A stretch of DNA of 23,451 nucleotides, the filler included, from an uncultured virus (IMG/VR IMGVR_UViG_2049941000_000079) (Duplodnaviria; Heunggongvirae; Uroviricota; Caudoviricetes). It is 7 parts of one record of this genome, joined end to end, with 100 filler letters (N's around TTAATTAATTAA, not from the genome) between each part and the next. Parts side by side here need not be neighbours in the genome. Positions count along the whole stretch, not along the records: positions 1 to 2,244 come from IMGVR_UViG_2049941000_000079; 6 more parts are not named here. One strand, written 5' to 3'. The translations under genes were made by a program, and so were the position numbers. Below are positions 1-23,451 of the stretch, in pieces. Position 1 is the stretch's first letter; every line of letters starts with the position of its first letter. The notes under the pieces are model-generated. The model made no database searches, was not told where the DNA came from, and worked only from the letters and a program-made list of their open reading frames with translations.

Positions 1-402
1 AGTAGCAAGCCTGTAATCTATAAAGAGAAAAGATATGAAAGCGTTATTGATTTTGCTAATGAAGTAGGTATCTCTATTAGAACAGCTTGCGAGTGGTTAA
101 AAAGAGGTTTTAACCCACAAGGAATACCTTGCAGATACGAAAATGATACAAAGGAATTTAACTTTGTCAACCGACACAAAGCACGAAATGAAGCAAAAGC
201 AAAGACCGTAATTGTTAATGATGTAGAGTATAAGAATTGTGATGAAGCAAGTAAAATGCTTAATATTCCAAAAAGTACACTCTATTCATACTTACAAGGT
301 AAAAGACATAGTACAAAATATATATGTAGATATGGCAATCAGCAGCCAAGCCTTACGAAATCCGATAACAGTAGTAAGGAAGGTTCAACGACTAATGGGT
401 GA
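1..402 (+). CDS. Intron-encoded homing endonuclease, C-terminal part with two NUMOD1-like HTH repeats (GIY-YIG or HNH catalytic domain outside window)
   Basis: Frame 1 open from base 1 to TGA 400-402, not in the ORF track: SSKPVIYKEKRYESVIDFANEVGISIRTACEWLKRG...KTVIVNDVEYKNCDEASKMLNIPKSTLYSYLQGKR...GNQQPS...EGSTTNG*. The tail reads through intron elements Q and R. Confidence 0.85.
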   Translation, partial: SSKPVIYKEKRYESVIDFANEVGISIRTACEWLKRGFNPQGIPCRYENDTKEFNFVNRHKARNEAKAKTVIVNDVEYKNCDEASKMLNIPKSTLYSYLQGKRHSTKYICRYGNQQPSLTKSDNSSKEGSTTNG

Positions 403-530: not shown

Positions 531-928
531 GCTGTGACAATCGGTCAAATATTGCAGACCTCAAGTACACGGTCGCAACGGAAAATTGCGCAGATCGTAC
601 AGCGGCATATCAGAACACACAGGCGATCATCGAAGCAGGAAACAGAAACAGTCAGGCAATCCTTGACAAACTCTGTCAGCTTGAACTCGACAATGTTAAG
701 CAGGATAACGCGAACCTTCGCACACAGCTTAATATGGCGAACCTTGCGGCAAGTCAGACGGCACAGACAGCGGAGCTTCGTACTGCAAACGCAACACAGT
801 TAAACAACCTCGTATCAGAACTTCGCGCTTGTCCTATCCCGGCACAGCCCGTGTATGGGTCACAGCCGATCTTCACTTGCGGCGGTAACAACGGTTGCGG
901 ATGTAGCGGAAACGCTTTCTATAACTGA
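531..928 (+). CDS. 3' exon of a conserved Cys-rich coiled-coil phage protein of unknown function
   Basis: In-frame TAA at 521-523, then (C)CDNRSNIADLKYTVATENCADRTAAYQNTQAIIEAGNRNSQAILDKLCQLE...CPIPAQPVYG...GCGCSGNAFYN*. No ATG until 734. Track ORF 734..928 is only its tail. Confidence 0.85.
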
Positions 929-944
929 ATAAGGGGGTATTGCT

Positions 945-1400
945 ATGGCACAGTATGTAACGACAAATGACGTTTTGGTGGCCTTAAACAACACCATTCC
1001 GTTCAATCACGTTTCTATCCCTTGCAATACGGGTAATGTGATACCCATTGCATCAGGGGTTCTTACTATCAAAGGCAATACTCGTAACCGTTTTGCAAGA
1101 TACCGTGTAACATTGCAGGGTAACATAGCCGTTCCCGAAGGTGGGGATGTCACACCGATTGCTTTAGGCATTGCCATCAACGGGGCGGTTATCCCCGAAA
1201 GTGTAGCAATATTCACCCCGGCGGCGGCAGAAGAGTACGGACACATCAACACAGAAGCAGTTATAACTATCCCTTGCGGATGTTGTGCTTCGGTATCGGC
1301 TGTCTATGTTGACGGCACAGAAGATGATCCGGCAACCACACCTACACCGTCAATCACGGTAAGACGTGAAGCGTCAATAACGGTTGAGAGAATAGCATAG
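945..1400 (+). CDS. Hypothetical beta-rich protein, possibly BclA-C/C1q-like sandwich
   Basis: 151 aa; RBS AAGGGGGT upstream; alternating hydrophobic strands and an IPCGCC motif. The fold is inference. Confidence 0.85.
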   Translation: MAQYVTTNDVLVALNNTIPFNHVSIPCNTGNVIPIASGVLTIKGNTRNRFARYRVTLQGNIAVPEGGDVTPIALGIAINGAVIPESVAIFTPAAAEEYGHINTEAVITIPCGCCASVSAVYVDGTEDDPATTPTPSITVRREASITVERIA

Positions 1401-1414
1401 AAAGGAGAACAAGG

Positions 1415-1843
1415 ATGCACAGATTACAGATGTATGAAAATCTCCATGATATGCTTGAACAGGAGATTTCAAAGATTCAGAGCAAAGGGGAACTTGATCC
1501 GCAGAGTTTGGATAACCTTGATAAACTCATGCGTACCGTCAAAAACACGGACAAGTGTATTGATCGTGAAAGTGGCGGTCAGTCATACGGCAACCGTATG
1601 AGTTACGGACGGTATGATATGATGCCTATGGAGTCATACGGTATGAGCATGGGAAGAGATAGTGACGGCAGATATAGCCGCGACAACTTTCGTGATTCTT
1701 CGTTTCGAGGGGGATCGTATGGGCAATCCTACGAATACAGTAGGGATAACGCGCCGATAATGCAGAGACTTGAATCCATGATGAACGAAGCACGGAATGA
1801 CAGCGAACGTCAGGCTATCAAAGATTTTGTGAATAGGATGTAA
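1415..1843 (+). CDS. Hypothetical protein: helical ends flanking a Ser/Tyr/Gly/Arg low-complexity linker (RDSDGRYSR)
   Basis: 142 aa; RBS GAAAGGAG; last gene before a terminator hairpin. Confidence 0.85.
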   Translation: MHRLQMYENLHDMLEQEISKIQSKGELDPQSLDNLDKLMRTVKNTDKCIDRESGGQSYGNRMSYGRYDMMPMESYGMSMGRDSDGRYSRDNFRDSSFRGGSYGQSYEYSRDNAPIMQRLESMMNEARNDSERQAIKDFVNRM

Positions 1844-1846
1844 AAC

Positions 1847-1872
1847 AAAGGGCGGCAGAAATGCCGTCCTTT
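1847..1872 (+). terminator. Probable intrinsic terminator
   Basis: AAAGGGCGGCA-GAAA-TGCCGTCCTTT hairpin (GNRA loop) just after the stop at 1843; short U tract. Confidence 0.7.
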
Positions 1873-2727: not shown

Positions 2728-3420
2728 ATGAACGAATTGTTAAAAGTCAACGCAGAGAATCAGACAGTATCGGCAAGGGAATTACATAAGGCGTTAGAGA
2801 TAGAAAAACGCTTTAGTGCATGGTTTGAAGCAAACTCACAGGGCTTTGTAGAAGGAGAAGATTTTACAAGCGTACTTTCAGGTACGGTTGTAAACAACGG
2901 GGCATACAGGGAATTAACAGACTACGCTTGTTCAATAGATATGGCAAAGCATATCTGCCTTATGAGCCGGACAGAAAAGGGTAAACAGTGCAGACAGTAC
3001 CTTATAGACCTTGAAAAAGCATGGAACACCCCGGAGCAGGTTTTTGCAAGAGCCTTAAAAATGGCTGATGAAACCATTAACAGACTTAAAGCGGATATGG
3101 AACATATGAAGCCGAAGGTGGAGTTCTTTGATGCGGTAACTGACAGCAAGGACGCAATCTCAATGGCTGATGTAGCAAAGGTACTTAACTTTGGTAAGGG
3201 TCGGAACACTCTGTTTAAGATACTCCGCAAAGAGAAAATCCTTATGAAAGATAACAGACCTTATCAGGAATACATTGATCGTGGTTTGTTTAGGGTTGTC
3301 GAACAGAAGTTTGACAAAGGTTACGGAGAAGTCGGTATCAACATCAAGACGTTGGTGTTTCAGAAGGGTGTTGACTACATCCGCAGGATTCTTGAAAAGA
3401 ACGGATATTACGATGAGTGA
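2728..3420 (+). CDS. Phage antirepressor (AntA/AntB N-terminal plus KilAC C-terminal domain)
   Basis: VSARELHKALE...FSAWF...MAKHICLMSRTEKGKQCRQYLIDLEKAWN; PKVEFFDAV...GRNTLFKILR...PYQEYIDRGLF. Start moved to ATG 2728 (RBS AAGGAG). Confidence 0.92.
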   Translation: MNELLKVNAENQTVSARELHKALEIEKRFSAWFEANSQGFVEGEDFTSVLSGTVVNNGAYRELTDYACSIDMAKHICLMSRTEKGKQCRQYLIDLEKAWNTPEQVFARALKMADETINRLKADMEHMKPKVEFFDAVTDSKDAISMADVAKVLNFGKGRNTLFKILRKEKILMKDNRPYQEYIDRGLFRVVEQKFDKGYGEVGINIKTLVFQKGVDYIRRILEKNGYYDE

Positions 3421-5114: not shown

Positions 5115-5444
5115 TGTAGGGGATGAAGGAGAACTTGAAAAGTATAAAGCGGATCATCCCGAAATGTTTGTCACAAGGGGAGAACGCAAGGGTGAACTTC
5201 AATCAAAGTATCTTGTGGCAGATACCATGATCGAGCGGTGCAAGAAAGACGCACTTTTCATGGATTCCTTATCAGGGGAACATCAGGCAATCCTTGTGTG
5301 CATGATGTTCGGAGTACCGTTCAAGTGTAAGATCGACAGCCTTGTAAGAGGTAAAGCCATTGTTGATCTTAAAACCACAAGGGAAATGCACAAACAATTC
5401 TATATTCAGGACTTCGGACACGTTGACTTCATAAGTTACTACGG
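5115..5444 (+). CDS. PD-(D/E)XK exonuclease (ExoVIII/DUF3799-like), piece 3 of 4
   Basis: KCKIDSL...IVDLKTT catalytic motifs; joins 7895 and 6889 without a frame break. Confidence 0.85.
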
Positions 5445-5977: not shown

Positions 5978-6783
5978 TTGATTCGTTTGTATCAGACGTA
6001 GTAGCGTGTGTGCAGAATAATACAGACCTTGCCGCTTGTACGAACAAGTCTATTTTTTCAGCGGCTTTATTGAGCAAATCAATCAATCTACCACTTACAC
6101 CACAGTTGGGATATTGCTATCTCGTTCCATATAACAACAAGAAAAATGAAAACGGAAAGACCGTTTATGTCAAAGAAGCGACCTTTCAAATGGGGTGGAA
6201 AGGATATGTGCAACTTGCCCTTCGGTCAAATTATTACCGCAGGTTAATAGCAACCGATGTCAGGAAGGGTGAAATCGTCAATTACGACCCTTTTAATGAT
6301 GCGTATGCTATTCAGCCGTGTGCCTTTGAGAAAAGACTTGAAAAAGATGCAAAAGGAAAATACATGATTCCCGTTGTTGGCTATTACGCAAAGTTTGAAA
6401 TGGTCAATGGCTTTGTTAAGGAAGCTTTTATGTCACATGAAGATATGCTGACTTTCGCAAAGACATATTCAAAAGCATATCGGAGTGACATTGATAAACA
6501 CACATCTTATTCATTCTGGACTACAAAGTTTGAAGATATGGCAAAAAAGACTATGATCCGTCAGTTGCTCGGTAAATGGGGATTGCTTACACGCGAACTT
6601 GAACTTGCTTATCTGCATGATATGGCAATAGAGAATGAGGATGGAACACTTGACTACATTGATAACAAGCCGGATGATTCAGAACCCGTTGTAAATCCTT
6701 TTAAGGGAGAAACAGTTGAAGATGTCGAAGTGGTAGATATTCCCGAAGACATAGCGGCACAGGCAGACGAGGTATTCAAATGA
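5978..6783 (+). CDS. recT: RecT-family single-strand annealing protein, main body
   Basis: DSFVSDVVACVQNN...LPLTPQLGYCYLVPY...FQMGWKGYVQLALRS...WTTKFEDMAKKTMIRQLLGKWG. Confidence 0.92.
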
Positions 6784-6888: not shown

Positions 6889-7192
6889 CTATCCGTTCCA
6901 ATTAGCCTTTTATCGGGAAGCGGTCAAGATTCTGTTTGATGAAACACTACCTTGCTTCATTGCCCCGGTATCAAAGTCTGAATACCCTGAAATCAAACTT
7001 GTTCACATTGATGATGTTTCACTCTTTGAGAGTTTGACGGAAATAAAGAATAGTCTTGAGAACGGATCAATAGTTGAAGTATGGAAAGGCAACATTGAGC
7101 CTATCAGATGTAACAAGCCGGAGTGCCATTACTGCATGGCAACGGAAGTTCTGACAGAACCTATTAACTACAAAGACTTAATTATGATGTGA
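6889..7192 (+). CDS. PD-(D/E)XK exonuclease, piece 4 of 4 (C-terminus)
   Basis: YPFQLAFYREAV (QxxxY motif)...EPIRCNKPECHYC...NYKDLIMM*. Confidence 0.85.
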
Positions 7193-7196
7193 GCCT

Positions 7197-7895: not shown

Positions 7896-8883
7896 NNNNN
7901 NNNNNNNNNNNNNNNNNNNNNNNNNNNNNNNNNNNNNNNNNNNNNNNNNNNNNNNNNNNNNNNNNNNNNNNNNNNNNNNNNNNNNNNNNNNNNNNNNNNN
8001 NNNNNNNNNNNNNNNNNNNNNNNNNNNNNNNNNNNNNNNNNNNNNNNNNNNNNNNNNNNNNNNNNNNNNNNNNNNNNNNNNNNNNNNNNNNNNNNNNNNN
8101 NNNNNNNNNNNNNNNNNNNNNNNNNNNNNNNNNNNNNNNNNNNNNNNNNNNNNNNNNNNNNNNNNNNNNNNNNNNNNNNNNNNNNNNNNNNNNNNNNNNN
8201 NNNNNNNNNNNNNNNNNNNNNNNNNNNNNNNNNNNNNNNNNNNNNNNNNNNNNNNNNNNNNNNNNNNNNNNNNNNNNNNNNNNNNNNNNNNNNNNNNNNN
8301 NNNNNNNNNNNNNNNNNNNNNNNNNNNNNNNNNNNNNNNNNNNNNNNNNNNNNNNNNNNNNNNNNNNNNNNNNNNNNNNNNNNNNNNNNNNNNNNNNNNN
8401 NNNNNNNNNNNNNNNNNNNNNNNNNNNNNNNNNNNNNNNNNNNNNNNNNNNNNNNNNNNNNNNNNNNNNNNNNNNNNNNNNNNNNNNNNNNNNNNNNNNN
8501 NNNNNNNNNNNNNNNNNNNNNNNNNNNNNNNNNNNNNNNNNNNNNNNNNNNNNNNNNNNNNNNNNNNNNNNNNNNNNNNNNNNNNNNNNNNNNNNNNNNN
8601 NNNNNNNNNNNNNNNNNNNNNNNNNNNNNNNNNNNNNNNNNNNNNNNNNNNNNNNNNNNNNNNNNNNNNNNNNNNNNNNNNNNNNNNNNNNNNNNNNNNN
8701 NNNNNNNNNNNNNNNNNNNNNNNNNNNNNNNNNNNNNNNNNNNNNNNNNNNNNNNNNNNNNNNNNNNNNNNNNNNNNNNNNNNNNNNNNNNNNNNNNNNN
8801 NNNNNNNNNNNNNNNNNNNNNNNNNNNNNNNNNNAAAGATTCTGTGATTACCAGAACAAGAAGGTGTTAGAGAGGTTAAATAA

Positions 8884-14883: not shown

Positions 14884-15166
14884 TATCAACGGCAGATATA
14901 TAAACAAAAAGGTCACGTTCTTTACAAGCAATTATGACTTAAAGACGTTGAAGTACGATGATCGAATCACGAATCGGATGAGAGAGCGGNNNNNNNNNNT
15001 AGCCGAACTTAACGGAGAATTTGAAGAGGATAAGACAAGTGATGCTTTTATTCTCGGTGGTTATGTAGATGCGGCACTNNNNNNNNNNCCTTAAAACCAC
15101 AAGGGAAATGCACAAGCAATTCTATATTCAGGACTTCGGACACGTTGACTTCATAAGTTACTACGG
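14884..15166 (+). repeat. Three allelic duplicate fragments (DnaC-like ~10906-11011; exonuclease ~7817-7895 and ~5367-5444)
   Basis: Near-identical copies separated by 10-N spacers; internal differences are synonymous (AAC/AAT, CGG/CGA, GAA/GAG, AAA/AAG). Confidence 0.92.
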
Positions 15167-23360: not shown

Positions 23361-23451
23361 CCTGACAAGGCACAGTTCTTCTCACAGAAGTTCAATGTGA
23401 AATTACCGCAGAACATAAACACCGGGTACGATGCCGTACAGTTTATGCTTA
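23361..23451 (+). CDS. Fragment of a small Gln/Asn/Pro protein, possibly an upstream gene of the 531-1843 module
   Basis: PDKAQFFSQKFNVKLPQNINTGYDAVQFML; link to the module is from recall only. Confidence 0.4.

Follow-up and report, generated by a model that had tools for sequence, protein, structure and literature searches.

In the exosporium nap and F-ENA anchor of Bacillus, a jelly roll of the TNF/C1q type is found in BclA-CTD, F-BclA and ExsF/BxpB, the last of which pairs with a BclA or F-Anchor leader, and ExsF is described as binding a Pro-rich peptide in the cleft of its trimer (PMC12357932). Among virions, knob-on-stalk proteins such as the Sf6 tail needle knob, PRD1 P5, cyanophage tail fibres and the phi812 spike knob combine a TNF-like knob with a helical or fibrous stalk. 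Two kinds of nucleic acid element also bear on what follows, namely the group I introns of phages that carry homing endonucleases (T4 td / I-TevI type), and the dimerisation hairpins of retroviruses (HIV-1 DIS/SL1, ALV L3).

The locus described here belongs to an uncultured virus of the Caudoviricetes (IMGVR_UViG_2049941000_000079) from a bovine gut metagenome. What we call the window is the whole stretch of DNA that was analysed, 23,451 nucleotides of stitched assembly with 31 N runs and six linkers. Judged by comparison with relatives, three of its genes are the end (3′ half) of a conserved six- to eight-gene cassette of gut and rumen viruses, and the first of them is interrupted by an intron. 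Our literature searches found no description of this cassette, and the accessible part of the paper on Butyrivibrio phage Ceridwen, which carries it, is silent on the subject (PMC7372960). The features of the window are:

1-530, + strand: group I intron, 3′ part, lying within the gene 1 CCC motif, its terminal G probably at 530; RF00028 match at 203-493
1-402, + strand: end (C-terminal part) of an intron homing-endonuclease-like ORF with NUMOD-type DNA-binding repeats
531-928, + strand: gene 1 exon 2, the C-terminal half of a protein of about 250-300 aa with a predicted long helix, a Pro-rich segment and a Cys-Gly-Cys tail
945-1400, + strand: gene 2, 151 aa, a predicted stand-alone TNF/C1q-type jelly roll with a CGCC loop
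1415-1843, + strand: gene 3, 142 aa, helical-type ends flanking a Gly/Ser/Tyr/Arg/Met/Asp-rich core
1847-1872, + strand: 11-bp hairpin ending the cassette, a likely terminator (fold -18.1 kcal/mol; terminator scan)
23365-23451, + strand: piece of a Gln/Met-rich gene (78 aa) located ahead of gene 1 in relatives, placed by identity to L001 and L002

The original prediction had described three co-oriented frames with one terminator and strong RBSs. The frames and the single hairpin stand, but not the ribosome-binding sites: a strong SD lies ahead of gene 3, gene 2 is preceded by a G-run only, and gene 1 has no in-frame start or RBS within the window. ATGs at 495, 528 and 734 were considered as starts of gene 1 and rejected for want of an SD. 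Of the proposed Cys clusters, the tail of gene 1 has GCGC and gene 2 has CGCC, the CC arises only after splicing, and gene 3 has one Cys. The closing hairpin has a weak U-tail on the + strand and a better one on the - strand, and a consensus scan reports a terminator on the - strand only; an Rfam match to MicX at 1835-2012 (E 0.075) was discarded as a match to this terminator. The suspicion that the end of the window (23361-23451) holds a piece of a small upstream gene proved right, 23365-23451 being 91-92% identical to L001 6046-6132 and L002 6838-6924 within the Gln/Met-rich gene. A contig from the same sample covers 1-655 with zero differences from the window, and the intron-exon junction is therefore not a stitching artefact; the window is also colinear with L001 on either side of its first gaps. 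Short repeats between N runs, where 15001-15166 and the region of 5115-5444 and 6889-7193 share the same L001 coordinates, are a sign of assembly artefacts and lie outside the three-gene finding. On the 3′ side of the cassette the window encodes a Cro-like HTH protein (DUF739, 2478-2714) and an Ant antirepressor (2728-3420), likewise present in Ceridwen and L001.

The CCC motif of gene 1 is, as far as sequence comparison can tell, split by a group I intron, and predicted splicing rejoins it. The catalytic core is recognized by RF00028 at 203-493 (Rfam, E 1.4e-10) with 48.1 bits, slightly below the gathering score of 50, and the 5′ part of the intron is outside the window. Introns that are 83-86% identical occupy the same gene 1 codon in L165, L190 and L194; cutting them out behind the U of the second Cys codon re-forms CCC and gives open frames of 281, 289 and 264 aa, respectively, and other in-frame U sites in these loci likewise yield open frames. 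Four RNA runs contained no splice joint; the RNA contigs skip 1-480 and 1891-2100, and exon 1 is outside the window. The intron ORF of the window (1-402) shares 44% identity with the 323-aa ORF in the intron of L190 (E 3e-32), with weak matches below cut-off to NUMOD1 and the I-HmuI NUMOD and a match to phrog_314 (E 3e-4), and no relatives of it were found among viral contigs. From the N-terminus of the L190 protein we judged by eye that the endonuclease is probably of the GIY-YIG type. The intron is of the ordinary kind, sharing with other phage group I introns the RF00028 core, a nested endonuclease-like ORF and insertion after a U in a conserved codon; it differs in that its target is a gene without an assigned function. 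A scan with the intron 3′ end returned 120 loci, four of them within gene 1 and continuing in the same phase. At most of the 120 (L125-L243) the 3′ end lies elsewhere, in a different gene of human-gut phages, and about a dozen further targets were seen. A practical consequence is that the intron conceals gene 1 from gene callers. In other loci, endonuclease-like genes that stand free, or inserts several hundred bases long, are often found between cassette genes (L001 7333-7995, L030, L035 7518-8312, L038 4308-4859, L122 5006-5626, L044, L055 and L112), as if the block were itself a homing target.

The order of the cassette is conserved far beyond chance. In the viral loci found with gene 2, profile searches place gene 1 upstream of it in 34/34 and gene 3 next in 32; of 93 genome loci recovered through gene 1, 80 were kept, and these contain gene 2 in 69 cases, gene 3 in 64 and both in 62. 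Among the 11 genome loci without gene 2, three end within 400 bases and eight have a small ORF that is beta-rich by eye. These 114 loci (34 viral and 80 genome) bear out the claim that the gene set recurs as a block. The claim had placed the block near the lysis/integration end of Clostridia phages: in annotated phages it does follow the endolysin or holin, often ahead of integrase or repressor genes, but the limitation to Clostridia phages falls, gene 1 being found also in a Bacteroides phage, crAss-like phages and archaeal viruses. On its 5′ side gene 1 is accompanied by genes for a hydrophobic protein of about 90 aa, an HTH protein of about 70 aa (GerE/sigma-4-like or DnaA-C-like matches), a 126-aa protein with invariant Cys/His/Asp, a Gln/Pro-rich protein and a Gln/Met-rich protein of 66-78 aa. 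Across 80 human-gut Bacillota-type loci we counted the Gln/Pro gene in 78, the Gln/Met gene in 78, the peptidase-like gene in 70, the HTH gene in 41, gene 2 in 69 and gene 3 in 68. The upstream peptidase-like protein was compared with C39 / double-glycine leader peptidases, which have a papain-type Cys-His-Asp set and substrates with a GG-type leader: C17, H98, D109 and D112 are invariant in 13 sequences, with no Pfam or PDB sequence match, and a GG-like leader, by a pattern of our own, is present in 17/99 gene 1 proteins. Contigs about 96% identical to the window span the three genes in RNA libraries of three studies (one contig covers 551-1584), which is compatible with transcription of the cassette without showing it. 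In large rumen phages (L019, L021, L022, L023, L024, L033, gene 2 at 8001 or 1958, and G004) in-frame TAG occurs in otherwise intact cassette genes, a pattern that TAG recoding would explain; their gene 3 is of another type, and the palindromic hairpin is absent.

The AlphaFold2 model of gene 2 (pLDDT 88) is a ten-stranded TNF/C1q jelly roll. With it, Foldseek puts BclA-CTD (E 6.5e-8), ExsF/BxpB and F-BclA at the head of the list, and VIA gives Z scores of 16.5 for F-BclA, 16.3 for BclA, 15.0 for EDA and 14.3 for ExsFA; the alignments at Z 16.3-16.5 extend over the whole chain (125/151 residues, rmsd 1.9-2.0). The exosporium-like beta-sandwich that had been predicted is thus upheld, with BclA-CTD, F-BclA and ExsF as top or near-top fold matches. 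Nor did an ordinary tail or lysis protein emerge, as Pfam, PHROG and NCBIfam give only the unannotated phrog_16490 for gene 1 (exon 2, E 9e-13) and phrog_20016 for gene 2 (E 2e-23). Gene 2 shares the jelly roll of the exosporium proteins at Z 14-16.5 and 14-19% identity and, like ExsF, it stands alone and has a putative partner with a Pro-rich segment; on the strength of the model it may work like ExsF or the BclA head, yet it fails their family tests. Only 1/89 gene 2 members touched BclA_C (PF18573), at E 0.07 and not above cut-off; no NCBIfam family, the exosporium leader TIGR03720 included, matched three gene 1, two gene 2 and two gene 3 proteins at E 0.05; and collagen G-X-Y repeats are absent, the longest G-x-x run being 1 in all three window products. 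An atlas lead for gene 2 (0.90) went to a cluster with 38% BclA_C. The cassette departs from the nap not only in lacking these three signatures but also in its stalk, which would be a long helix with the Pro-rich segment at its C-terminal side, and in being viral and present also in viruses of non-sporulating hosts.

The same fold matches admit an explanation within the virion, in which genes 1 and 2 would form an accessory fibre or spike, a stalk whose knob, an adhesin or lectin, would bind mucus, feed particles or host cells, and the other genes would be assembly chaperones. TNF-like knobs on virion coiled coils are indeed among the matches (phi812 spike, cyanophage fibres, PRD1 P5, Sf6 needle knob), and in records of crAss-like phages gene 1, which lies between the holin and the virion genes, is labelled 'spike protein' or 'viral fiber', but these labels are depositor annotations and the fold scores are weaker (Z 9-13). 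In the described knob-on-stalk proteins, moreover, knob and stalk are not separate genes as they are here, and the cassette is located outside the tail module, in siphovirus-type genomes after the lysis genes, with low-complexity partners and a peptidase. The same gene 1 accompanies very different virion types, and gene 2 is about 70-93% identical between unrelated rumen phages, which we would not expect of a receptor-binding tip. Taken together, we regard a fibre or spike as rather unlikely.

Gene 1 itself is widespread, its profile matching 2,545 clusters (at 50% identity) at E 0.001 and 1,258 at E <= 1e-10. Exon 2 of the window shares 81% identity with the L002 protein (residues 126-256), whose full-length model has a disordered start, a hydrophobic helix at 31-40, a helix at 65-226 and a Pro/Cys tail. 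The model is essentially one long helix (pTM 0.30), and its atlas and BFVD matches were set aside as meaningless for such a shape; against BFVD none reached E <= 0.001, which also speaks against the fibre. Among 99 relatives CCC is found in 76, CC in 89 and the CGC tail in 89. A hydropathy peak above 2.1 over 11 residues occurs in 99/99, and only 40% reach 1.6 over 19 residues; the N-region is acidic in 99/99 and has no Lys or Arg in 87/99, which makes Sec export unlikely, and the hydrophobic tip is probably a short anchor or core rather than a signal peptide. Hydrophobic periodicity is 3.7-3.8, with no clean heptad. Lys amounts to 1.2% in genes 1 and 2, whereas gene 3 has 6.5% and neighbouring ORFs have a median of 5.0%; such a low content would fit a structural pair and is in keeping with a virion fibre, though low Lys is not rare, 24% of the ORFs above 140 aa in these loci also having less than 2%. 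PDB sequence searches with gene 1, gene 2 and the peptidase returned nothing useful, and matches to Baculo_PEP_C and to the pox A-type inclusion protein were dismissed as generic to coiled coils. In gene 3, 50/60 core residues are G, S, Y, R, M or D, and the family has 2.1 RG and 1.3 [GS]Y[GS] per 100 aa, compared with 0.35 and 0.08 in neighbours; Pfam, PHROG and NCBIfam gave no family match for it.

The distribution of gene 1 bears most directly on the proposal of a dedicated structure that possibly modifies host spores and goes with hosts that form them. Gene 1 is encoded by Bacteroides phage C3_41T2LP, which forms plaques on B. uniformis, by crAss-like phages, and by two viruses whose records assign Methanomassiliicoccales as host. 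Bacteroides and archaeal hosts form no endospores. A spore-specific role is consequently unlikely, and the gene is not restricted to spore-formers but spread across three host lineages, which points to a host-independent role. Gene 2 is found only with Bacillota-type cassettes. In 80 Bacteroidota-type loci it is present in none, and gene 1 is followed instead by a different 149-aa protein (75) and a 177-aa protein (80), with an RG/Tyr-rich protein in 66, DUF7841 in 79 and an HExxH-type protein in 42; HHalign of one sequence of this partner against the gene 2 profile gave a probability of 0.3%. In archaeal-type loci 9/10 gene 1 proteins lack the Cys tail and gene 2 is present in 0/10. Since partners differ or are missing in this way, the core consists of the gene 1 helix and tip, with the partner and peptidase exchangeable, and persistence of this core with swapped partners across host lineages argues against a role in spores only. 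Some Bacillota-type cassettes have gene 2 replaced by the other type of partner (L119 after gene 1; L036 6445-6822), so that the two are exchangeable inside one host phylum. Both cassette types are, as far as can be read from their sequences, accompanied by a peptidase-like gene, of Cys/His/Asp or HExxH type. As to frequency, phrog_16490 was present in 1/301 genomes in the class of G002, the one being the seed itself, and in 14/300 in the class of G001, about half of these weak N-terminal matches; host labels of metagenome bins were not relied on.

That the products join or modify the host's spore coat or exosporium, so that phage would be carried in or on spores, is in our estimation quite unlikely. 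The best fold matches of gene 2 are spore proteins and many genome loci carry Clostridia labels, and the N-terminal motif of gene 1 resembles chromosomal Gly/Cys/Tyr-rich Clostridia proteins of 36-48 aa; 12/13 of these score 18-40 bits against the gene 1 tip, above reversed and 20 shuffled versions, a resemblance that is partly circular because the set was found through phrog_16490. Against this stand, besides the Bacteroides and archaeal viruses, the lack of both exosporium-leader and collagen signatures and the result for strict sigK/E/G/F consensus motifs, present in 0/95 regions upstream of cassette genes, a search of low power in which sigA also scored 0; the same consensus gave 9 matches in 393 other regions. 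The tiny hydrophobic proteins themselves stand in tandem in L429 (5740-11180), L430 (6648-7253), L431 (6316-6595), L432 (6580-6712) and L433 (5432-5578), and one follows what looks like a germination operon; Pfam and NCBIfam hold no family for them, and a spore role for them is a guess.

We tentatively propose instead that the cassette makes a putative cysteine-locked stalk-and-knob matrix, built in the cell and disulfide-locked after lysis, which protects or clusters virions; the proposal is a possible one that may well turn out to be wrong. Within it, the cassette likely coats viruses rather than host spores. The genes would be expressed late, or from their own HTH regulator. Gene 1, trimmed beforehand by the cassette peptidase, would form an oligomeric coiled coil whose Gly/aromatic tip is rooted in the membrane or in a hydrophobic core of its own making, and trimers of gene 2 would grip its Pro-rich tail as ExsF grips the BclA/F-Anchor leader, with gene 3 and the Gln/Pro-rich proteins serving as cytoplasmic scaffolds. 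The cysteines, reduced in the anaerobic cell, would cross-link on meeting air and favour virion survival between animals. The putative contact between genes 1 and 2 is proposed because of the analogy to ExsF and its Pro-rich ligand and because tail and partner are lost together. In support of the matrix we count, from sequence comparison, the fixed order in 114 loci, the widespread Cys motifs, the nearness of gene 2 to exosporium TNF/C1q trimers and the apparent joint loss of the gene 1 Cys tail and gene 2 in archaeal viruses, and further the peptidase-like gene with both cassette types, the three host lineages and the presence in Ceridwen, seen only as lytic. Counted against it are that TNF/C1q folds are common in tail fibres and lectins, with the EDA model match within 1.5 Z of BclA; that the Bacteroidota-type partner has no detectable sequence likeness to gene 2; that low Lys is not rare and the gene 1 periodicity not a distinct heptad; and that many Bacillota-type UTRs do not have the palindromic hairpin described below, which shows no enrichment in the other two types either. 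The Cys clusters could also be metal ligands instead of disulfides. The baculovirus polyhedron envelope protein (PF04513) and occlusion matrices serve as a works-like comparison for the matrix only; faint Pfam matches to PF04513 in 3/99 gene 1 members (best E 0.004) are far below cut-off and no better than those to unrelated coiled-coil families, and membership is not claimed.

If the cassette were a moron-type operon, expressed in the lysogen or infected cell and reshaping the membrane from its inner side to exclude superinfecting phage, provide defence or control lysis, this would account for the location between lysis and integrase genes, the HTH gene, the hydrophobic tip without a signal peptide and the contigs of relatives in RNA libraries of three studies. 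It leaves the exosporium-like fold and the Cys clusters unexplained, and the RNA-library contigs show neither the timing nor the fact of transcription. The cassette is present, moreover, in crAss-like phages and in Ceridwen, which in the accessible part of its description is observed as lytic only (PMC7372960), and we hold such an operon to be rather doubtful.

Outside the window, Bacillota-type relatives including L001, L002, L165 and L190 have a hairpin in the 5′ UTR of gene 1, between the Gln/Met-rich gene and gene 1. A self-complementary apical hexamer is present in 38/157 predicted hairpins from 106 distinct UTRs, as against 27/1,098 and 26/1,106 in control regions upstream and downstream of other genes, and 20 shuffles of the UTRs gave a mean of 2.5 (maximum 5) such hairpins. 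The palindromic hairpins comprise 12 different hexamers, and on a gene 1 tree holding 34 of 37 carriers the hexamer changes 21 times and clusters no more than shuffled labels, which suggests that self-complementarity of the apex is retained while its sequence varies. A second set had 25/52 palindromic hairpins in 36 UTRs, with two hexamers only and 14 with one hairpin sequence; Bacteroidota-type UTRs, where starts are poorly called (2/36), and archaeal-type UTRs (1/11) are not enriched, and many Bacillota-type UTRs have a hairpin that lacks a palindrome. In a strand-neutral test, a GC-rich palindrome lies 30-95 bases upstream in 128/186 UTRs (80 not de-duplicated) compared with 157/1,060 controls. 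Within the arms, G-T oppositions exceed A-C (47 to 8, p 8e-8; control 35 and 22), a bias better explained by sense-strand RNA than by a DNA operator, and folding energy is lower on the sense strand in 46/60 hairpins; 18/60 are perfect inverted repeats without an open flank. MAFFT alignment of 18 UTRs recovered a second stem with double-sided changes at 5/5 pairs but not the palindromic hairpin, and by eye a third stem covers the SD in some loci. Rfam assigned no family to the element (10 loci at gathering, 6 at E 0.1), and a comparison of dimer energies was set aside as circular, the hairpins having been picked by their palindromes. The literature searches did not find the hairpin; five short motifs are absent from six supplements of PMC10690425, other supplements of which may list it.

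By analogy with retroviral kissing loops, we predict that two RNA copies pair through the hairpin. The element shares with HIV-1 DIS/SL1 and ALV L3 a GC-rich self-complementary apical hexamer, often purine-flanked, and GUGCAC (8/38) and GCGCGC (3/38) among the palindromic hairpins are two of the three common HIV-1 palindromes given in PMC5874298. Unlike those elements it lies in an internal UTR of a DNA-phage mRNA and uses at least 12 hexamers; we draw an analogy and claim no homology. The plain rival is a stabilising stem-loop: in Clostridium cellulolyticum intergenic stem-loops are reported to set operon stoichiometry (PMC4423207), and there too the hairpin lies between genes of a multi-subunit operon, but such a role requires no self-complementary loop. 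For the matrix, pairing of two mRNAs by the UTR hairpin would let nascent gene 1 chains meet more readily. Whatever the protein role, selection for loop self-complementarity in an mRNA hairpin of a bacterial virus would be unusual. The hairpin could also serve an intracellular RNA-protein condensate or a metal/redox sink, in which Cys binds Zn/Fe, gene 3 condenses on dimerised mRNA and nothing exits the cell; RG/Tyr-rich gene 3, the Gln/Pro-rich partners and the reducing state of the anaerobic cytoplasm agree with this. We consider it very unlikely, given that genes 1 and 2 are low in Lys with a fold typical of surface proteins, that the hydrophobic tip is unaccounted for and that family matches to metal-binding proteins were none.

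The broadest version of the matrix would have gut viruses of Bacillota, Bacteroidota and archaea share one morphogenetic system, an exosporium-like, air-hardened occlusion coat for virions that is seeded in Bacillota phages by kissing-loop mRNA dimers; in this full form we think it unlikely. The function of gene 1 would matter in any case, as its 1,258 clusters at 50% identity span three host lineages that share only the gut habitat, and a protective matrix, if true, would explain how phages of strict anaerobes survive between hosts. Two cultured phage-host pairs (those of Ceridwen and C3_41T2LP), both with non-pathogens, make the matrix reading testable.

Several neighbours of the cassette deserve mention in their own right. 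In 26 Bacteroidota-type and 5 archaeal-type loci a reverse transcriptase gene is found no more than 3 kb upstream of gene 1 (for example L121 2933-3967, L405 2260-3588 and L037 449-1471); some of these genes stand beside tail genes and are presumably DGR-like. In a Clostridium phage (L036 7403-7930) the last cassette gene encodes a 175-aa protein (phrog_17879) that is ferritin-like by eye, and in L277 a RAGATH-21 RNA (6003-6078, 93.5 bits) and a tRNA stand directly 3′ of the cassette.
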